A stretch of 64,000 bases of DNA from Treponemataceae bacterium (GTDB taxonomy: Bacteria > Spirochaetota > Spirochaetia > Treponematales > Rectinemataceae), in NCBI GenBank assembly GCA_963667725.2, contig CAXXHO010000005.1, positions 160,001-224,000 on the forward strand, written 5' to 3'. Each line of letters begins with the position of its first letter. The stretch's first letter is position 1. The position numbers and the translations under genes were made by a program. The notes below the pieces were generated by a model. That model was not told where the DNA came from. It did not search any database and was given only the letters and a program-made list of their open reading frames with translations. Below, in pieces: positions 45,957-55,448 of the stretch.

Positions 45957-46322
45957 TTATTGTTTTCTATAAAAGACATACTCAGAGGCTTGCCATCTAT
46001 ATTCTTCCGAAAAATACATCTCTGTGATGATATCTCCATCCAGATGGAGCATTGTCGTATCCCATCCAGGTCCCTTGCCCCATTCAATAAACAATGCTTC
46101 TTTTCCATCGCCGCTAAAATATAGCTCATGCTTTAAATGAACAAATTCGATGATATAATACAACTCACCTTCTTTTATAATTCTAATGCTGTTTGAATTG
46201 TCCTTAAGTTTCCACGTCCCCAAGAAATCATCCCTACCTTTCGCTTCAGTGAAGGAGACTACTAAAAGAACAAGGGTAATAGCTAATACGTACTTCTTTA
46301 GCATTCTAAACACTCCCATCAT
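45957..46322 (-). CDS. Small exported protein, candidate immunity protein
   Basis: TAATG coupling to the upstream gene (alternative start 46304); signal peptide MLKKYVLAITLVLLVVSFTEA; AT-rich. Confidence 0.65.
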   Translation of the reverse strand: MMGVFRMLKKYVLAITLVLLVVSFTEAKGRDDFLGTWKLKDNSNSIRIIKEGELYYIIEFVHLKHELYFSGDGKEALFIEWGKGPGWDTTMLHLDGDIITEMYFSEEYRWQASEYVFYRKQ

Positions 46323-46915
46323 TAACGATCAAAATCCCAAAAACGTGATCTATTTCCCCAACAAGCGTTTCTAGAATTTCTATACTGATAGCCCCGTGAT
46401 CCTTCCCACTTTTCTGTTGTCGGAGTTCTTCTATTCAATCCTTGATGGTATAAATCAGCAGAACCATCAGCCTTCACCCTCACAAGGGCAACATGACCAT
46501 CATCGATTATTTCGATGCTCCACCCCAGAGGTGGTTGATCCAACAATTGGTCAGATAAAATTTTCACATGCCCCGCCACGCTAGTTGAGGAAGCGGAACC
46601 CCACTGATTTGAAATGTCAGTTCCCGCCTGTTTCAAAACCGTTTCCACCCAAATGTCACAATCATTGACCCCTTCCTTGTACCTCTGGCCTTTGTTGTTG
46701 AGGCACTTGTCCTCGATGGGATCGTATTCCGGGTCGTGACAGCATCGGGGCAAACCGCCGAATATCTCGTTCATCTCCAAGGTTCCCAGGGGCAAACCAT
46801 CCAGGTCGATGACCGCCGTCAGCTCTCCGGTTAGGTCTTCGGCGGAGACCTCCAAACCGGACAGCCCGAAGAAAAACACCGCGATTAGGAGAACACAGCA
46901 GAATTTTTTCTCCAT
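46322..46915 (-). CDS. Sec-signal + double-glycine-leader + NlpC/P60-like domain protein (candidate cell-wall toxin)
   Basis: GGAGGTG RBS; signal peptide ending EVSA; LGTLEMNEIFGG; GQRYKEGVNDC(86)DIWV, GH(141)VALV, LYH(157). Confidence 0.7.
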   Translation of the reverse strand: MEKKFCCVLLIAVFFFGLSGLEVSAEDLTGELTAVIDLDGLPLGTLEMNEIFGGLPRCCHDPEYDPIEDKCLNNKGQRYKEGVNDCDIWVETVLKQAGTDISNQWGSASSTSVAGHVKILSDQLLDQPPLGWSIEIIDDGHVALVRVKADGSADLYHQGLNRRTPTTEKWEGSRGYQYRNSRNACWGNRSRFWDFDR

Positions 46916-47012
46916 CTTCACCTCCAGAAAAGATTTTTTCAAAAACCGGAAGCAACGCTTCATCTTCTACACGTGTATGCCATGAAGGTCCGCTTCAAAA
47001 GGAGGTGATGTT

Positions 47013-47609
47013 TTGTTCGTAAAGCTCGCGATTTTTCTTCTCGCATTTTCTGAAACCATCGACAAGGAATCTCTGCGCTTCGCCTATAGCACCGAACAAG
47101 GATATGACAGCTCCTGCGGCCTGACGACGCTCACCTGCCTCATGGACAGATTTTGGGGAGTTCCGGCCGATGAAACAGCCCTCGCCAAAGAATTCTTAGC
47201 CGACAAGTGGGCAACAGGAGACCTGACCGTGACTTTCGCCGAAATGGCTCGGATCCTGGAAGCAAAAGGGTTCGCGTGGAAAGCCTACAAGATGAATTTC
47301 AGGCAGCTGGAAGCGGCTACCGCCAGCTATGCGCCAGTCATCGTTCACTACGATAGACCGGAAGGACACTTTGCCCTTGTCCTCTCGCTGGACAACGGAG
47401 CGATAACCATCTCCGATCCGGCCGAGGGTACGATCGCTCTTGAGCAAGCCCGTTTCGAGTCGAGGTGGTCAGGCGCCGTGCTGGTCGCGGTCCATCCAAA
47501 GGGAGGATTGAATGAGACGCTTCTCGATCAGGCAAGCCGCAATGTTTATGGAAGAAAGATGCTGCTCGAAAGAGCGGCCCGCCGCGGGGCGGGATTCTCC
47601 TCACCATAA
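47013..47609 (+). CDS. Stand-alone C39-family cysteine peptidase (FapD-like)
   Basis: GGAGGTG RBS; QGYDSSCG, GHFALV, ISDPAEG (Cys-His-Asp), FESRWSG; no ABC domain. Confidence 0.88.
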   Translation: MFVKLAIFLLAFSETIDKESLRFAYSTEQGYDSSCGLTTLTCLMDRFWGVPADETALAKEFLADKWATGDLTVTFAEMARILEAKGFAWKAYKMNFRQLEAATASYAPVIVHYDRPEGHFALVLSLDNGAITISDPAEGTIALEQARFESRWSGAVLVAVHPKGGLNETLLDQASRNVYGRKMLLERAARRGAGFSSP

Positions 47610-47613
47610 AACC

Positions 47614-48447
47614 TTGACGGGAAGGATCGCCGTCGCCTGCGTTCTCCTGTTGATCGCTTTACGTGTTGGAGCGCAAGCCGCGACCCATCAGCGGATCGGT
47701 GTCGAAGGAACCGCCCCCCTCATGTTGGTGGCGGGCATATCCGTCGAGACCGTCGGGATCGAAAACAAAGGAGGGACGGCTCTGGAAATCGACCCATCTT
47801 TCATTTTCGAGGCGCTCTATGGACAACGTTTCGGGCTTTCGGTTGAGGTCCCTATCGCGTTGAAGCTGGCGCTGGGCAGAAGCATCTCGCCTCGAATCGC
47901 CGCGGCGGCCGGCGACCCCGGCTTTAGCCTTTCGTATACATTTCGCGTCGATGACTGGCGGCTCGGAGTCGAACTCTCCTACAGCCATCCCCTGGGAATA
48001 TGGAACTCCTACGAAGCGGATGAGATGAACATCATGTCGGGATCAGGATATCGAAAAATCGGCGTTTCCTGTTCCTCCGTGCGCTATATGGATCCGCTCA
48101 TCGCGGGAGTCGCGATCAGCGCCGACAGCTATTTCGACAGGAAGGAACGCTACGGAAGCGGATGTCGGCCTCTCGTCCTCACGGCAAGCCTCTACGCCAC
48201 TGAGGCGCTCAACAATATCGTGGCACTTACGGGCGGACTCTCGCAGCGGCTTGCCTGGCCGCTGCGCTCGGATGAATCGCCGGCGGAAACCGGTCTGTCC
48301 TATTCGCTTTCCGGCAGGATGTCTATCGTATTCACGGAAGGAAGACGAACGACGAGCCTCGGCATATCGAAGCTTTTAAGCGCAGCTTCGTCGCCCATCG
48401 TATTCGCCGTGGGATTTATGTTCAGACTAAGCGCGAAGGAGGGTTGA
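47614..48447 (+). CDS. Outer-membrane beta-barrel transporter (FapF-like)
   Basis: Signal peptide from probable TTG at 47614; alternating strands; AGDPGFSLSYTF, HPLG...GSGY...VRYMDPLI. Confidence 0.6.
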   Translation: MTGRIAVACVLLLIALRVGAQAATHQRIGVEGTAPLMLVAGISVETVGIENKGGTALEIDPSFIFEALYGQRFGLSVEVPIALKLALGRSISPRIAAAAGDPGFSLSYTFRVDDWRLGVELSYSHPLGIWNSYEADEMNIMSGSGYRKIGVSCSSVRYMDPLIAGVAISADSYFDRKERYGSGCRPLVLTASLYATEALNNIVALTGGLSQRLAWPLRSDESPAETGLSYSLSGRMSIVFTEGRRTTSLGISKLLSAASSPIVFAVGFMFRLSAKEG

Positions 48448-48450
48448 ATA

Positions 48451-48900
48451 ATGCGATACTTCAGGCACAAGAGCAGAAATGACGGAACCGAAAACGGCAA
48501 CGTTCGGAAAGACAGTCACCGCATCTCCGCGACTGCCGCGATTCACGCTTCACTCGCCCTCTGTACCGCGCTTGCTATAGCGGCCTGCCATGTCGATTCA
48601 GCGTCCTGGTATCCTTCCGGCAAGGCGACGGTGGCTGCTTTCTATGAGTACGTTTCCTCTGGCGAAAAAGCCTGCGTAGCGACGATTGAAGTCGCCAACA
48701 CCGGAAAATCAACAATCAATTCGTGTACCCTATCGGTATCGGCCACGACGGATGCCCGGACATACCATCAGACGATCATTAGGGAAATAATGATTCTCCC
48801 AGAGAAACGCGTCTACCTCACCGTGGAGATAACGTATGTGTCGGAGACCGAAACACTCGGAGAATCGGGCTTGGGCATAGTGGACGAGTATTATCTCTGA
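48451..48900 (+). CDS. Putative lipoprotein with a beta-sandwich-like domain
   Basis: Hydrophobic stretch ending LAIAAC; IEVANTG; start codon uncertain. Confidence 0.6.
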   Translation: MRYFRHKSRNDGTENGNVRKDSHRISATAAIHASLALCTALAIAACHVDSASWYPSGKATVAAFYEYVSSGEKACVATIEVANTGKSTINSCTLSVSATTDARTYHQTIIREIMILPEKRVYLTVEITYVSETETLGESGLGIVDEYYL

Positions 48901-48984: not shown

Positions 48985-50247
48985 CTAAAGAATCCACATC
49001 ACCGAGGCCGGCACATACGTGATGATCATCAAGACCAGGATCATCGCGCCCAGGAAGGGCCAGGTTTCCTTGATCGTATCCTTGAGGTCGGCCTTCAGCA
49101 CGCGCGACGCCGTGAAGAGCGTCAGCCCGAAAGGAGGTGTGAGCATGCCGATAGCGAGGTTGGTCGTCAGAATGATGCCGAAATGCACGAGGTCGATCTG
49201 CAGCACTTCGAGTATGGGAAGCAGGAGGGGCACGAGGATGATCTGTATCGAGCCCGATTCCATGAACATGCCTGCTATCAGGACGATTATATTGACGACA
49301 AATAGAAGCGTGTACTTGTTCATGCCCAAGGAGAGTACGGCCTCGAAAGCTTTCTGGGGAATCTGCATGTAAACCATGGTCCAGGCGAATAGGGAGGCTG
49401 CCGCCACGATGATCATGATGCCCGCCGAACTGATAGCCGACTGGAGGAAGATGCCGGGCAACTCCTTCAGCTTTATTTCCTTGAACACGAAAACGCCGAT
49501 TATTATTGAATAGATGACGGCCGCGACCGCGGATTCGGTGGGGGTGAAGACGCCGAGGAATACGCCGCCCACGATGATGACGGGCGTGCCGAGGGCGACA
49601 AGGGTGTCGATCACGACTTCCTTCACTGACTTGGTGCCTAAGCCTTTGGATTCGCGCGGGATCCTGTGTTTTTTCGCGGTGAAAAAGGTGACGATCATCA
49701 AGGCGCCGCCGACCATGACTCCGGCCGGAAATCCGACTCTATAGAGCTGGCCTACAGAAGCCTTGGAGAGGGTTCCGTAGATGATAAAGGCTATGCTCGG
49801 GGGGATTATGATGCCTATCGGGCTCGCCGAACCCACGATGGCCGACGCGTAGGCGGGTTTGTATCCGTGGTCCTTGAAGCCCGAAATCATGACGCCGCCT
49901 ATGGCGGCCGCCGTGGCGATGCCAGAGCCCGAGATGGCGGCGAAGAGCATGCAGGCAAGGATGGCCGTCATGCCCATGCCTCCCGTCACCTTCGATACGA
50001 AGAGGCCCGCGAAACCGATGAGGCGCTTCGCCAGGCCGCCTTTGTTCATGAGGTCGCCGGCGAGGATGAAGAAGGGAATGGCAAGCAAAGCCGCGGAATC
50101 GATGCTCGCGAAAAAGCGCTGTACCGCCGTTGTGGCATTGATGCCCGAAGCGAAAATGGTGACGAGGGCCGAGCCGCCCATGGCCGTGACGATGGGAGCG
50201 CCCACAGCGAGAAGCATGAGGACGGAACCGAAGAGCAGCAGGGTCAT
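48985..50247 (-). CDS. dctM: TRAP transporter large permease
   Basis: LAIPFFILAG, FAAISGS, IIPPSI, TPTES, GMLTPPFG. Confidence 0.95.
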   Translation of the reverse strand: MTLLLFGSVLMLLAVGAPIVTAMGGSALVTIFASGINATTAVQRFFASIDSAALLAIPFFILAGDLMNKGGLAKRLIGFAGLFVSKVTGGMGMTAILACMLFAAISGSGIATAAAIGGVMISGFKDHGYKPAYASAIVGSASPIGIIIPPSIAFIIYGTLSKASVGQLYRVGFPAGVMVGGALMIVTFFTAKKHRIPRESKGLGTKSVKEVVIDTLVALGTPVIIVGGVFLGVFTPTESAVAAVIYSIIIGVFVFKEIKLKELPGIFLQSAISSAGIMIIVAAASLFAWTMVYMQIPQKAFEAVLSLGMNKYTLLFVVNIIVLIAGMFMESGSIQIILVPLLLPILEVLQIDLVHFGIILTTNLAIGMLTPPFGLTLFTASRVLKADLKDTIKETWPFLGAMILVLMIITYVPASVMWIL

Positions 50248-50741
50248 GCCTTAGCCTCCTGTACGGACTTCGCTTCCTGCACTCCCTTGAGAATTCCTAC
50301 GAAGGTCTGGAATATGAAGACTCCGAAGGCAGGCGGGAAAATCCAGTATACCCAACGTTTGGGTATGCGCATGTTGGTGCTCACCTGGGTGCCGGCGAGC
50401 TTGATGAATTTAAAGGCGATGAAAAACATCGCGACGAAGAATATGAGGGAGAGGAGTTGCTGAAAAACGAGGAGCCAAGCCTTGGGAGCCTTGGGCAGGT
50501 ACTCCTCGAGCACGCTCACGTTGATATGGCTCCTGCGCTTGGCTATCATCGCCGCGCCGATCATGACTGCCCAGATATCGGCGTAGCGAGTGAGCTCTTC
50601 CGTCCACATCAGGCCCGTTCCGAAAACATATCTCAACAAAATCTGCGTGGCATAGGTGGCCGTCATCAACATGAACAGCGTGACGATGACCCAGCCGCAT
50701 ATCTTGTCAAGGATGTCACTGGTTCTCAGCAACGCTTTCAT
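50244..50741 (-). CDS. dctQ: TRAP transporter small permease
   Basis: Four TM helices, RYVF...WTEELTRY, HINV. Confidence 0.92.
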   Translation of the reverse strand: MKALLRTSDILDKICGWVIVTLFMLMTATYATQILLRYVFGTGLMWTEELTRYADIWAVMIGAAMIAKRRSHINVSVLEEYLPKAPKAWLLVFQQLLSLIFFVAMFFIAFKFIKLAGTQVSTNMRIPKRWVYWIFPPAFGVFIFQTFVGILKGVQEAKSVQEAKA

Positions 50742-50837
50742 ATCGATACTCCTTGCGTTAGGCATGCGAGAAAAGGCTGTCCTGGAAGTTGGTCGCTACC
50801 GGGGCAGCCCCTCAAGAAAATTATTTACTGGTCTCGA

Positions 50838-51809
50838 TCACTTAATCGCCAGGATGGCGTCATAGAATTTTTTCACGTCGCCCTTGGCGTATTTGTTGAT
50901 GACGGGCTGGACTGCCTTGACGAAGGGTTCGGTGTCGAGGCTGTTGAAGACCATGCCCTTGGAGATGAGTTCGGCTTTGGCTTTTGCCTCGTTGCCTTTC
51001 TGGTCGAGTCCGAGCTTGTAGGCCGCGTCCGTGGCGGCTTTCTGGATGACGGCCTGATCCGCGGCGGGGAGCTTCTTGAACCAATCTCCCGAGGCCAGGA
51101 GCGTGGCCATGGCGAAGACATGTCCCGTCTCGGAGACATATTTCTGTACTTCGTTGATCTTGTAGTCGCGGGTAGTGATGATGGTGTTCTCATGACTGTT
51201 GACGGTGCCCTGCTGGAGCGCGGTGTAGACTTCGGACCATGCCATGGCCTGAGCGTTGGCGCCCATCGCCTTGAAGGCTTCGACGAGAACGGGGCTTTCG
51301 CTGATGCGCATCTTGAGACCCTTGAGGTCTTCGGGCTTGGTGATGGGGAATTTGGCGTTCGTCACGTGGCGGTAGCCGCGGGGCATCAGGGAGAGCGACT
51401 TCAGGCCGTACTGATCGGAGAGGTCGAGGAGATCCCTGGCTGTCTTGGAAGCGATGAATTTCTCGACATGGTCCCAGCTCCTGAACAGGAAGGGCATATC
51501 GAGGACGTTGATGGCGTTGATGAACTGGCTGGCGTCGCCAGAAGTGATGACGGCGAACTGGAGGTTGCCGGCCTGCATGGCTTCCATGAGGGGGCCGGAA
51601 TCGCCGAGCTGGCCGCCGCCATAGATGACGATCTTGTACCTGTTGCCGGTGCCGGCTTCGACCTGCGCCTTGAATTCCTTTGCCCAGTTGTCGTAGGCGG
51701 TGTTGGGCGCGGCGATGTGGCCGAGCTTGAGTTCCTTCTGGGCGAAAGCGCCGGCGGTTGCGCCGAACATCATAGCGGCGACGAGCAGAGCGATAATCCC
51801 TTTCTTCAT
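50838..51809 (-). CDS. dctP: TRAP transporter substrate-binding protein
   Basis: Signal peptide, GGGQLG, DLKGLKMRI, EVYTALQQGTVNSHEN. Confidence 0.93.
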   Translation of the reverse strand: MKKGIIALLVAAMMFGATAGAFAQKELKLGHIAAPNTAYDNWAKEFKAQVEAGTGNRYKIVIYGGGQLGDSGPLMEAMQAGNLQFAVITSGDASQFINAINVLDMPFLFRSWDHVEKFIASKTARDLLDLSDQYGLKSLSLMPRGYRHVTNAKFPITKPEDLKGLKMRISESPVLVEAFKAMGANAQAMAWSEVYTALQQGTVNSHENTIITTRDYKINEVQKYVSETGHVFAMATLLASGDWFKKLPAADQAVIQKAATDAAYKLGLDQKGNEAKAKAELISKGMVFNSLDTEPFVKAVQPVINKYAKGDVKKFYDAILAIK

Positions 51810-51832
51810 GATGATCCTCCTTGAATACCTTA

Positions 51833-51855
51833 AATGTGCCACTATGTAGCACATT
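51833..51855. promoter_or_regulatory. Palindromic operator upstream of dctP
   Basis: AAT-GTGCCACT-A-TGTAGCAC-ATT; near-copy of the site at 55513-55529. Confidence 0.65.
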
Positions 51856-51909
51856 GTTCACATACAAAGTCGCGGACCGACAGGTTTTCCCGCCGTCGCC
51901 TCGCTCAGC

Positions 51910-52935
51910 TCAGACCGTCTTTCCCGCGGCCTTGGCTAAGTCGTAGGCCACCTGGATGATCCAGTCTTCCTGACCGCCCACGGCCTTGCGTTTCCCAAGC
52001 TCGATGAGGACGTCGCGCACGTCGACGCCGAAACGCTCGGCGCCCTTCTTAGCGTGGAGCATGAAGCTGGAATAGACGCCCGCGTAGCCCATGATAAGGG
52101 AGTTGGAATCGTGCCGAGGGAGAGGTTTGCCCTTCGCCGCCACGAGGGGGAGGAGGACTTTCTCCGCCGCGTCCATCGTTTTGAAAAGGTCGGCGGCCAC
52201 ATCGGCGCCGGACTTCTTCAGTGCGCCTACAAGCATCTCAGTGGCCGCGTTGCCGGCCCCGGCGCCCATGCCTCCCAGGGAACCGTCGATGTAGGTGGCT
52301 CCGGCCTTGACGGCGGCGAGCGAATTGGCGACGGCGCAGCCCAGGTTGTCGTGGGCATGGTGGCCGACGGGAATCTTGAGCGCGGCTTTCAGGGCCGCGA
52401 CGCGTTCGCCTACCTGGTCGGGCAGAAGGGCTCCTGCCGAATCCGTGGCGTAGACGACGTCGGCGCCGTAGGATTCCATGATGAGGGCCTGCTCCACGAG
52501 CTTGGCCGTGTCGGCCATATGGGCCATCATGAGGAAGCCCACGACGAACATGCCCATTTTCTTGGCCGCTTTGATGTACTCTTCGGAAACGTCGGCTTCG
52601 GTGACGTGGGTAGCCACGCGCACGACGCTGGCGCCCCGGCGCTGGGCTTCCTCGAGGAGATCGAGGGTGGCGATGCCGGGCACGAGGAGGACGGCGATTT
52701 TAGCCTTCTTCACTACCCTGGCCGCCGCCTGGATGAGGTCGAGCTCATTTTCGAGTGAAAAGCCGTAGGTGAGGGAAGCGCCGCCGAGACCGTCGCCGTG
52801 GTTCACCTCGATGATGTCGACGCCGGCATCGTCGAGGGCAGCCGCTACTTTGGCCACATCGGCGCTCGTATACTGATGCGAGACGGAGTGGCTGCCGTCC
52901 CTCAGGCTCGTGTCGGTGATATAGACTTTGCTCAT
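51910..52935 (-). CDS. dmpG: 4-hydroxy-2-oxovalerate aldolase
   Basis: [48 protein letters not shown]. Confidence 0.95.
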
Positions 52936-53807
52936 CGTTTGCCTTCCTGAATGCGTTGGGCGAATTTCTCCGCCACCGCCACCGCGGCCGCGTTGATGAT
53001 GTCCAGGTTGCCCGTATGCTTGGGCAGGAAATCGCCCAGGCCTTCCACTTCGATGACGGTGGTGACCGTATCGCCCTGGAGGATGGGTTCGACGAGGAAG
53101 CGGTAGCCGGGAACGTAAGTTTTTACGTCGGCGAGAATTAGATCTATCGAGGCTCGGATGGCCGTCAGGTCGGGCCTGCGAACCCTGCAGAGGATGGTGT
53201 TGCGCATCAGGATGGGGGGATCGGCGGGATTGAGGACGATGATGGCCTTGGCCTGGTCGGCGCCGCCGATGACCTTGAGCGCCTTCGTCGTCGTCTCGAT
53301 GAACTCATTGAGGTTCTGCCTTGTTCCCGGCCCCGCGCTCCTGGAGGAGATCGAGGAGACGACTTCCGCGTAATAGACGTCTGCGGCGCGGTTGATGGCG
53401 TACACGATGGGCGAGGTGGCCTGTCCGGCGCAGGTGACCATGTTGACGTTGTCGAGCTTGAATATTTCCTCGCTGAGATTGACCGAGGGCACGACATAGG
53501 GGCCAATGGCGGCAGGGGTCAGGTCGATGGCGATCTTACCAGCGGCCTTGAGCCTGGGCGCATGGATGAGGTGGGGTCCTGCCCCGGTGGCGTCGAACAC
53601 TATCCTTATGTCATCCACCGCAAGCATCTCGTCGATGCCTTTGATGGTCGTGGGGATGCCGAAACCCTTGGCGATCTCAATGCCGGGGGATTCCTTGACG
53701 CCCACCACATAGGCTACTTCGAGGAAGGGACTCCTCCTCAGCTTGACGAGAAGGTCGGTGCCGATATTGCCGGGGCCGATGATGGCCGCCTTGATCTTTT
53801 GTGCCAT
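52932..53807 (-). CDS. mhpF: Acetaldehyde dehydrogenase (acylating)
   Basis: [45 protein letters not shown]. Confidence 0.95.
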
Positions 53808-53820
53808 TGTTCCTTTCCTT

Positions 53821-54609
53821 TTAATAGAAAGCGATTTCGACGGAGCCGAGCGTCGAATAATCCGCCCTGAAGCGATCGCCCTTGCCGGCGCTTATGGCCG
53901 CGGAAAGTGCCCCAGAAAGAATCACTTCGCCCTTTTTGAGCATGGTGCCGTACTTCCTCATGGAATTGGCCAGCCAGGCCACGCAGTAGGCGGGATCGCC
54001 AAGGACGTCGGTGCCTTTGCCGCCATTCTTGCGTTCGTCATTCAGGGAAAAATCCATAACCTCGGCCTTGAGGTCGATTTCGGCGATCTTCTTCCGCACC
54101 CTGCCCAGCACGTACCTGCCCGAGGACGCGTTGTCGGAGACCGTGTCGCAGTAGCCGATCTTCCAGTTGCCGATGCGGCTGTCCACGATCTCGAGAGCCG
54201 CGACGACGTAGTCGGTCGCGGCGAGCACATCGGCCGCCGTGATCTCGCCGGCCATATCGAGGTCGCGGGCGAGGACAAAGGCGATCTCCGCCTCCACCTT
54301 GGGCTGGACCATGGTGGCGCGCTCGATCCGTTCGCCCGCCGCTTCCATGTCGGAGAAGAGGTGGCCGAAATCGGGCGTTGTGACGCCGAACATGTCCTGC
54401 ATGGGCTTGGAGGTGAGGCCGATCTTCTTGCCGGATATCTTTCTGCCCACGGCCAGCGCTCGCTCAACATTGCGCATCTGCACGGCATAGGCGTCGTCGA
54501 CGTCGATGGCCGGGTAGGTAACGGTAAGTTTCTCGATGGGGACGCAGGTCCTGGAAGCGGCGTCGAGGGCGTCGGCGGCCGCGACGATTTCAGCTGGTGC
54601 GAGAGCCAT
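53821..54609 (-). CDS. mhpD: 2-keto-4-pentenoate hydratase
   Basis: [38 protein letters not shown]. Confidence 0.92.
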
Positions 54610-55448
54610 CAGAAGACTCCCGCGAGGAAGGACTCGACCACGGCGCAGAAGCGCGCGTTCTGCTCGATCTGGGTCCAGTGGCCGCAGTTGCCGAACATGT
54701 GAAGCTGGGCATTGGGGATGAGCCTGAAAAGCATCTGGGAAGTCTCGACGGGAATTACCTGATCCTCCCGCCCGTGGATGATGAGTGTGTCGTGCTTGAT
54801 GGATGCTATGTCGGCCGAGGCGCAGGCCATGGCGTCCACGCTGCGCTGGCGAGGCGCCGGGAACATGGAGCCGAAGCTTTCCTGATAGCCAGGACGGATC
54901 GAGGCTTCGTAGCGCATCTTCACCAGATCCGGCGTGATGATAGCCTTGTTCGAGACGAAGTGATTGAGGGCTTCGGACATGGCCTCATAGGAAGGCTCAT
55001 AGCCCCAGACCTTGTCGAGCCACTCGGTGATGGGGAACTGGACGCCCATGGCTCCCATGAGGACGACCTTGCGGATGCGCTCGGGATAGTGGATGGCCAT
55101 GTAGAGGGCGAGGCCTCCCCCGAAGGAATTGCCCACCAGGTCGACCTTGTCCAGCTTCATGGCGTCGAGAAAATCCTTGAGCTGCTTGCCCCATACGTCC
55201 ATGTTGAACTGTATGCCAGTGGGCCGCTCGGTGTAACCGAAACCGATCATGTCCAGGGCGATGACCCTGCGGGTGGCAGCGAGCTTGGGAAGAACGAGGC
55301 GCCAGTTGGCCCAGGCGGTCACGCCGGGTCCGGAACCGTGGACGAAGACGACGGGATCGCCTGAACCCATGTCGTGATAATTGACGGCGATGCCGCCCGC
55401 CTGGATAGTCTTTCCGATCTCAGGATTGCCCTGTTTCTGTTCTGCCAT
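54609..55448 (-). CDS. Meta-cleavage product hydrolase (DmpD/XylF/BphD family)
   Basis: HGSGPGVTAWANWR, GNSFGG nucleophile, HGREDQVIP, CGHWTQIE. Confidence 0.93.
   Translation of the reverse strand: MAEQKQGNPEIGKTIQAGGIAVNYHDMGSGDPVVFVHGSGPGVTAWANWRLVLPKLAATRRVIALDMIGFGYTERPTGIQFNMDVWGKQLKDFLDAMKLDKVDLVGNSFGGGLALYMAIHYPERIRKVVLMGAMGVQFPITEWLDKVWGYEPSYEAMSEALNHFVSNKAIITPDLVKMRYEASIRPGYQESFGSMFPAPRQRSVDAMACASADIASIKHDTLIIHGREDQVIPVETSQMLFRLIPNAQLHMFGNCGHWTQIEQNARFCAVVESFLAGVF

Follow-up and report, generated by a model that had tools for sequence, protein, structure and literature searches.

A Fap/Nap-type module and its exchangeable double-glycine cargo in a spirochaete: a probable export route for polymorphic toxins

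How might a bacterium release a protein whose bacteriocin-type double-glycine (GG) leader lies behind a Sec-type signal? The question is raised by five genes in a 64,000-nucleotide stretch of contig CAXXHO010000005.1 from a Treponemataceae bacterium (hereafter the window). A first-pass annotation had proposed that a stand-alone C39 peptidase and a beta-barrel, resembling FapD and FapF of Pseudomonas amyloid export, mature and export an antibacterial enzyme here rather than an amyloid. Our analysis largely supports that proposal, and the best reading of the locus is a Fap/Nap-type exporter serving a polymorphic toxin–immunity repertoire. Taken as a whole chain, two-step export of polymorphic antibacterial proteins with cognate immunity, free of any ATP-binding cassette (ABC) transporter, is in our judgement probable. 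Beyond the first reading, the locus and its relatives have a polymorphic cargo slot, fusions of the C39 peptidase to the barrel, and a published non-amyloid precedent, the nap island of Neisseria. All five open reading frames (ORFs) are present where they had been annotated, around a 97-bp divergent gap (46916-47012) between the cargo and C39 genes:

45957..46322, minus strand, putative immunity gene, encoding a signal peptide and a beta-rich domain of about 95 aa
46322..46915, minus strand, cargo precursor gene, 197 aa, with an ATG behind a GGAGGT ribosome site
47013..47609, plus strand, C39 peptidase gene, 198 aa, with a TTG start behind AGGAGG
47614..48447, plus strand, barrel gene, encoding an outer-membrane beta-barrel of predicted FapF/COG4313 fold
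48451..48900, plus strand, accessory lipoprotein gene, with lipobox LAIAAC and Cys46

The host is a spirochaete, as had been suspected, the closest named contigs belonging to a Rectinemataceae bin and a Spirochaetaceae bin. The genome that carries the window (4.2 Mb, 97% complete) holds no paralogue of any of the five locus proteins elsewhere, and no genes for an ABC transporter that contains a peptidase (PCAT), a type VI secretion system (T6SS) sheath or a secretin were found in it. A PCAT elsewhere in this genome was considered and rejected, as the sole other C39-like match is an unrelated lipoprotein. That lipoprotein sits outside the window in a region (G000:C5:465000-476000) of many short unrelated genes between repeated elements, resembling an integron cassette array.

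The cargo precursor is made up of three consecutive parts:

46841..46915, minus strand, Sec-type signal peptide, residues 1-25, with a probable cut after V-S-A
46754..46801, minus strand, double-glycine leader, with G40 (-15), L43 (-12), E47 (-8), M48 (-7), I51 (-4) and G53-G54
46325..46753, minus strand, mature cargo, 143 aa, a cysteine hydrolase of predicted NlpC/P60 fold

The signal, assigned like all signal peptides in this study by eye and hydropathy, has a basic N-terminus and a 17-residue uncharged run, and the leader motif LGTLEMNEIFGG behind it ends at G54, so that the description of a Sec-signal protein with an internal GG motif is borne out. Fifty homologues of the cargo were found. 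GG is retained in 49/49 that contain the junction, position -12 is L or M in 48/48, -7 is M or L in 49/49, E stands at -8 in 39, and one of I, V, A or T at -4 in 49. Since the linker around the leader varies among these homologues while GG is kept throughout, the motif is more than chance. The leader agrees with the consensus recognised by PCATs, L(-12), E(-8), L(-7) and V(-4), in the available text of PMC6363468, but is placed behind a Sec-type signal. By analogy with those enzymes, the C39 peptidase is predicted to cut after G54. Separately, a cargo of the same family in G033 (L038:3213-3813, minus strand) is frameshifted between signal and leader, and its partner gene is intact.

The part behind the leader appears to be an enzyme and not an amyloid, as had been proposed. 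The mature cargo was modelled with a pLDDT of 86, and its best structural alignment is to CwlO (Z 10.8, root-mean-square deviation 3.1, 110 aligned); 26 chains score at least Z 8, and almost all of their titles name NlpC/P60, CHAP or wall hydrolases. Foldseek gave weak CHAP and NlpC/P60 matches only (E 1.1e-3), and Pfam and other sequence-family searches of the cargo gave no match. Residues Y79, C86, H141 and H157 are invariant in 49 cargo sequences, and from the model we predict that the mature cargo is a peptidoglycan peptidase toxin. A search for the cargo domain in longer proteins returned eight matches, six of them RHS-repeat proteins, all six of which retain the catalytic Cys and His. 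In these the domain starts shortly past the end of the RHS core, as marked by the core-end motif, and stops 4-50 residues before the C-terminus, where a polymorphic toxin would have its tip. The organism is known for one RHS match and belongs to Spirochaetia. NlpC/P60 tips are predicted wall-degrading toxins in the available text of PMC3482391. Among the long matches, P0205 couples the cargo domain with an unrelated metabolic enzyme; we regard it as probably a chimera of the assembly and left it aside. The N-terminal part of P0212 is unassigned.

The coupled small exported protein that had been noted beside the cargo is there, with a signal peptide and an ATG that overlaps the cargo stop (the likely start is 46322 or 46304), and a Pfam search of it gave no match. 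A homologue of this partner directly follows the present cargo family in 16/18 loci with room, 6 further loci ending too soon, and follows no other cargo family; tandem partner copies occur in L042. Complex prediction for mature cargo and partner scored 0.02, which weighs neither way. On the strength of this gene association, we regard the 45957-46322 product as the putative cognate immunity protein of the cargo. G+C is low here, at 0.38 in the partner gene and 0.38-0.44 over this gene plus the 3' end of the cargo gene.

The same arrangement extends to related loci. There, every cargo cluster is followed by a partner family of its own, except that one partner family is common to two clusters. 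Behind enzymatic cargos the partner has a signal peptide or is a lipoprotein, behind hydrophobic peptides it is a multi-pass membrane protein, and behind one His-rich cargo it has no signal; this topology fits immunity located where each toxin would act. The His-rich cargo (L134:697-1038, minus strand; L096; L099) has a hydrophobic N-half and a His-rich C-half and no Pfam match, as well as the signal-less partner, and is possibly a cytoplasm-acting, metal-dependent toxin. Among other variants, the AT-rich loci L125, L128, L131 and L136 carry duplicated cargos in which a His is conserved and an SCN motif present; their partners resemble lipoproteins. In L035 and L037 (G008, G009), C39 and cargo are separated by a further gene that encodes a signal-peptide protein of about 200 aa, possibly an orphan immunity gene.

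How far the leader travels between cargos was gauged with a weight matrix trained solely on the leaders of the present cargo family. In the own genome no other signal-like ORF scores above 6.5 (2986 scanned); at related C39 loci, 20 ORFs with unrelated C-termini score 9.7 or more (945 scanned). An iterated profile then yielded 73 ORFs, or 68 after removal of five false positives (three C39s, one barrel and one resistance-nodulation-division (RND) transporter), and missed six cargos seen by eye that have GE, GQ or divergent leaders. By their C-termini, the 68 leader-tagged ORFs, which come from 62 loci, group into 22 unrelated clusters, with mature parts of 179 aa at most. Their junctions are GG in 56, GA in 3, GE in 4, GD in 4 and GK in 1, in a selection that favours the motif. 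Of 28 representatives scanned, two are M23 peptidases above the cut-off (E 8e-13 and 1e-17), and most cargos have no family match. One cargo group has a YkuD-like domain in 6/14 members (best E 2.6e-7; its match to Tlde1a is weak, E 0.25), and some cargos are glycine-rich hydrophobic peptides with a weak glycine-zipper match. In the 22 closest non-homologous cargo pairs, the DNA is 74-99% identical over the 90 nt before the junction and 23-38% over the 90 nt after it, and C39s that are 95-100% identical adjoin different cargos. This collapse of identity indicates that swapping occurs at the GG codons. These sequence comparisons show the leader to be a constant module behind which the mature part is exchanged by recombination together with its partner gene.

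Several observations weigh against export of such cargo as antibacterial toxins through this module, and we take them up with the component that each concerns, beginning with the target. The nearest published locus is the Neisseria nap island, for which the main text of Poncin et al. 2025 (PMC11798529) describes the C39 peptidase NapP, the FapF-like channel NapF, the GG peptides NapA-C, and NapI. Like nap in that account, the present locus joins a stand-alone C39 and a FapF-like barrel to GG cargo and an adjacent immunity-like gene, with no amyloid and with probable phase variation. The nap cargos are cationic peptides of 16-36 aa, however, whereas the locus here encodes a 143-aa enzyme; the nap main text names no Sec signal for the peptides and proposes a holin, whereas the cargo here has a Sec-type signal; and a polymorphic slot with cognate partners, an extra lipoprotein and C39-barrel fusions are found here, no polymorphism being described for nap in that text. 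Genes for nap's short cationic peptide cargo, NapR and NapH are absent among the locus ORFs, a statement that does not extend to comparison with the Nap sequences themselves. The nap peptides, the only non-amyloid precedent put to a test, had no antibacterial activity and promoted autolysis (PMC11798529, main text).

The nap result bears directly on an alternative in which the same machine delivers cargo that acts on the producer itself, in regulated autolysis, DNA release or wall remodelling of the sort put forward for nap, with the partner as a regulator. We consider this unlikely, although besides the nap peptides, which killed no competitors, it could draw on the fact that NlpC/P60 enzymes with dedicated inhibitors commonly serve as autolysins in housekeeping (the fold matches include LytE-IseA and MepS-NlpI), and on poly-G promoter tracts at many related loci, which suggest phase variation as in nap. 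The rapid exchange of 22 unrelated domains with matching partners fits an arms race better, and the patchy presence of the present cargo (13/69 family genomes), the tandem partner copies and the recurrence of its domain at the tip of RHS proteins likewise point towards toxin and immunity.

Linkage between cargo and export module was assessed in a family survey of 69 genomes, in which the two-gene form was defined as a single-copy C39 gene adjoining a barrel gene. This form occurs in 22/69 genomes, with C39 and barrel adjacent in all 22, and a leader-tagged cargo lies beside the module in 17 of them. The present cargo family occurs in 13/69 genomes, 12 of which have a barrel match. A metagenome scan gave 79 loci, 51 with cargo, and among the 39 loci with at least 1.5 kb upstream the cargo was found in 35; three cargos in this count were added by eye, and the samples are partly redundant. 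That homologous C39-barrel loci carry GG-type cargo was an expectation set beforehand, and both surveys uphold it. Outside the family the clade is rare, with the barrel in 4/400 and C39 in 5/400 sampled genomes of the phylum. Not every case conforms: 5/22 two-gene modules have no adjacent cargo, two of the five having cargo elsewhere, and in G037, G014 and G016 the leader profile finds no cargo elsewhere in the genome. Conversely, two cargo-partner pairs with the leader occur in G046, which is 99% complete and has no C39 or barrel match.

These cargo-less modules and module-less cargos, together with the divergent orientation of the genes, are what could be said for the view that an ordinary periplasmic hydrolase lies by chance next to an unrelated operon of peptidase and porin. 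We find that explanation scarcely credible. The linkage counts largely refute it, since cargo is present in 35/39 metagenome loci with room, the only one of the 13 cargo-bearing genomes that has no barrel match is 70% complete, and the linkage persists although gene orientation differs between loci. Some related arrangements are recorded here in their own right. YkuD/Tlde1-like cargo-partner pairs lie away from the module in L150, L171, L156, L157, L159, L161, L163, L165, L166 and L167, the two pairs of G046 being of this kind. In a distant spirochaete family, L061:3398-6675 and L062:6010-6474, two loci of one genome, hold arrays of several cargos downstream of the barrel that share one N-terminus and G-N junctions and have unrelated C-termini. 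In G037 (L036) the cargo slot upstream of C39 is taken by a toxin-antitoxin pair that was recognised by eye as CcdAB-like.

The peptidase itself is a stand-alone C39 protein, as annotated: the 47013-47609 product passes the Pfam PF03412 cut-off (E 4.7e-19), has the motifs QGYDSSCG, GHF and ISDP intact and no ABC domain, and its catalytic set Q29, C35, H119 and D135 is invariant in 21 homologues. A PDB search with the C39 profile retrieves PCAT protease domains. The likeness to FapD stands only in part, because the NCBIfam FapD model is matched (E 5.1e-9) but at 35.7 bits against a cut-off of 330, far too low for orthology; the FilB model gives E 2.3e-10 and 40.3 bits against a cut-off of 475. 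FapD is described as periplasmic in the available text of PMC5557850. For the C39 here, a periplasmic location or export signal is not evident from the gene alone, as its N-terminal hydrophobic run has 9 residues only and is absent from the homologues in L047 and L050. This short N-terminus nevertheless also heads 13 fusions of C39 and barrel, which must be exported:

L172:6363-7796, minus strand, and L178:5851-7233, minus strand, single-ORF C39-barrel fusions with a catalytically intact C39
L179, L180, L181, L183, L189, L190, L191, L194, L028, L031 and L033, further fusions with a catalytically intact C39

In these 13 relatives C39 runs in frame into a beta-rich domain within one ORF. Compared by profile, the N-terminal half corresponds to the stand-alone C39 (99.8%) and the C-terminal half to the barrel (96.8%, E 2e-10). 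The residues Cys, His and Asp do not vary among the fusions, and the barrel part has no plug motif. As the fusions open with the same short hydrophobic stretch, their sequences suggest that the stretch does direct export and that the barrel is where the protease acts. The architecture is autotransporter-like. A broader C39 profile matches 49/69 family genomes.

Not all junctions are of the kind that a C39 peptidase would be expected to cut. In the set of 68, nine are GE, GD or GK, and others seen by eye are GQ, GE or GN; PCAT proteases are not known to cut any of these. Such a minority, together with the lack of an assigned FapD target in the available text of PMC5557850 and PMC6173800 (a passage of a 2026 preprint adds nothing on this point), could favour a leader that serves as a recognition tag, bound by C39 as a chaperone, with the cut made elsewhere or dispensable. 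This seems to us very improbable, given that Q, C, H and D are invariant in 21 stand-alone C39s and Cys, His and Asp in the 13 fused ones, that the junction is GG or GA in 59/68 cargos, and that FapD needs its catalytic cysteine according to PMC5557850, as far as its available text goes.

The claim that the 47614 product folds as an outer-membrane barrel was likewise put to a test set beforehand, and it withstood it. The model, built from 15 homologues (pLDDT 79, pTM 0.71), shows 12 strands, preceded by a signal helix and a short plug helix (24-30). Its top Foldseek match is FapF (5o67, E 1.1e-12, TM 0.64-0.68, 13-15% identity), and the next unrelated barrels begin at E 2e-8. An invariant proline in P-L-G stands at the position of the PTG motif that the available text of PMC6173800 describes for FapF and COG4313. 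A periplasmic coiled coil N-terminal to the barrel is absent from the model and from the 15 aligned homologues, the plug helix following directly after the signal peptide. Searches with the barrel sequence gave no Pfam and no PDB match; PF13557 is matched weakly by 1/15 members (E 0.058) and has no match in the own genome, and atlas look-ups for barrel and cargo led to unnamed clusters only. The barrel family comprises 182 representatives at 50% identity. A weak barrel match in G329 contains stops and was disregarded. By its modelled fold, then, the 47614 protein is an outer-membrane barrel of FapF/COG4313 type.

That double assignment is itself a difficulty, for the COG4313 uptake channel 4rl8 matches the barrel as well as FapF does (E 1.4e-12). 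The cargo, moreover, has two further invariant cysteines and might form a disulphide before export, and a folded enzyme with disulphides would thread through a 12-strand pore less easily than a disordered amyloid subunit. With the orphan cargo of G046, and with fusions in which the barrel could be a membrane anchor, these points allow an alternative in which a toxin–immunity pair is matured by C39 but stays periplasmic and leaves in vesicles or by lysis, the barrel serving for uptake or as protease anchor. We judge this improbable. C39 and barrel are constantly linked and also fused, cargo size is limited to 179 aa, FapF is a proven polypeptide exporter, and C39 genes are not reported beside COG4313 uptake pores in the available text of PMC6173800.

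The lipoprotein gene is confirmed by its lipobox and Cys46. Its product is all-beta, with a weak DUF2393 match and a CARDB-like atlas lead under 0.9, and its fold is possibly immunoglobulin (Ig)/CARDB-like. As a homologue lies directly 3' of the barrel in 43/66 loci with room, we list it as a candidate periplasmic helper of the barrel.

Returning to two-step export of toxins, we envision the following sequence. Cargo, partner, barrel, lipoprotein and probably C39 would, by their signals, cross the inner membrane by Sec. In the periplasm, C39 would bind the residual linker and leader through positions -12, -7 and -4 and cut after G54, as the motif and PCAT biochemistry suggest. The cargo, probably unfolded, would then pass the plugged FapF-type barrel by analogy with Fap. 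Once released, the 143-aa domain, whose NlpC/P60 fold and catalytic residues are predicted, could cut peptidoglycan cross-links of neighbouring cells, and the coupled periplasmic partner would protect the producer and its kin. In its boldest form, towards which we lean, this would be an undescribed route for polymorphic toxins, in which transit by Sec is followed by recognition of a bacteriocin-type leader by a periplasmic C39 and then by passage through a FapF-type pore. Its cargo would be a repertoire, reshuffled by recombination, of small enzymes that degrade the wall, of peptides active on membranes and possibly of nucleases, all paired with a cognate immunity gene, and the route would exist also as a C39-barrel fusion, the leader being both a FapD-class recognition signal and a portable tag. 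The kind of machine is already known from Fap and Nap; what is new here, as read from sequence, is the enzymatic wall-targeting cargo, the recombining toxin–immunity repertoire and the C39-barrel fusions. Literature consisting mainly of open-access main texts contained no description of such a spirochaete system or of a C39-FapF route for enzymatic toxins, and a term search of the available text of a microcin survey (PMC12219008) found no mention of FapF or spirochaetes.

Comparison with known systems places the locus between several of them. With Fap of Pseudomonas, whose FapD and FapF are treated in the available texts of Rouse et al. 2017 (PMC5557850) and 2018 (PMC6173800), it shares a catalytically intact C39, an adjacent plugged barrel with 12 strands and the same fold, and a Sec-dependent cargo. 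It differs in having no FapB/C/E-type repeat subunit, no FapA, no barrel coiled coil and no FapD orthology, and in a canonical leader, which the Fap proteins are said in those texts to be without. The earlier remark that no amyloid-repeat subunit is visible in the window is confirmed and extends to the whole genome: a pattern for the published FapB/FapC-type Asn/Gln repeats, which can miss divergent repeats, matched 0/32609 genome ORFs, and no repeat protein lies at the locus. An amyloid cargo was accordingly rejected, and the locus is not a Fap system. Pairs of fapD and fapF are noted in five more phyla in the available text of PMC6173800.

Polymorphic toxin systems such as RHS, CDI (contact-dependent growth inhibition) and MafB, in the available text of Zhang et al. 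2012 (PMC3482391), share with the present loci a constant N-terminal trafficking part, a variable C-terminus swapped at a fixed motif, a cognate downstream partner, and tandem and orphan cassettes, and the NlpC/P60 tips are common to RHS proteins and cargo. The toxins here, in contrast, are very small and have no repeats and no autoprotease, and the pathway table of that paper contains no C39-plus-FapF route. Class II bacteriocins and microcins exported by PCATs (Bobeica et al. 2019, PMC6363468, available text) resemble the cargo in the leader, with L(-12), E(-8), hydrophobic -7/-4 and GG, and several related cargos are, like them, glycine-rich hydrophobic peptides with membrane partners. Unlike them, the loci here have no ABC transporter, membrane-fusion protein or cytoplasmic processing, their leader lies behind a Sec-type signal, and many cargos are wall-degrading enzymes by predicted fold. 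Finally, the T6SS wall effectors have the same folds (Tse1 Z 7.1, Tae3 Z 6.3; Tlde1a, for another cargo type, weakly) and exported partners, but the cargo here is delivered by signal plus leader, no T6SS sheath gene was found in the genome, and housekeeping NlpC/P60 structures match better.

Expression may be controlled from the divergent gap, where one element faces the cargo gene:

46971..46997, minus strand, promoter-like element TGAAGC-N18-CGT

The element recurs in 18/22 upstream regions of this cargo family, with fixed spacing and a variable spacer, a count that is not independent because the motif was first noticed in these same loci; shuffles gave a mean of 0.19 and a maximum of 2 of 64. 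It resembles promoters of extracytoplasmic-function (ECF) sigma factors, which would suggest stress-linked expression of the cargo. Sigma-70 promoter and terminator scans stayed at chance level. Sequencing runs on record for this stretch comprised four DNA runs from one study, with no RNA run among those listed. In about 21/42 upstream regions of other cargo types, we saw by eye TTGACA, a poly-G tract of varying length and a -10-like box, which from sequence are likely to form a phase-variable promoter:

L060:8413-8512, L094, L081, L102, L096, L134, L089 and L123, candidate poly-G promoters upstream of cargos
L086, L091, L100, L103, L104, L130 and L135, further candidate poly-G promoters upstream of cargos

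Were the proposed route correct, polymorphic toxin systems would gain a new delivery pathway, and a Fap-type pore would export folded-enzyme cargo, beyond amyloid subunits or short peptides. FapD-class periplasmic peptidases would gain a canonical candidate substrate with natural cut-site variants, and the C39-barrel fusions would give structural studies access to the machine in a single gene. It would also point to interbacterial competition in free-living spirochaetes, with some twenty uncharacterised toxin-partner families.

In the window, the module is flanked at 48985-55448 (minus strand) by genes recognised by eye as a TRAP (tripartite ATP-independent periplasmic) transporter and an aromatic meta-cleavage set of aldolase, aldehyde dehydrogenase, hydratase and hydrolase. 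This flank is also present in several relatives and is probably only the insertion site.

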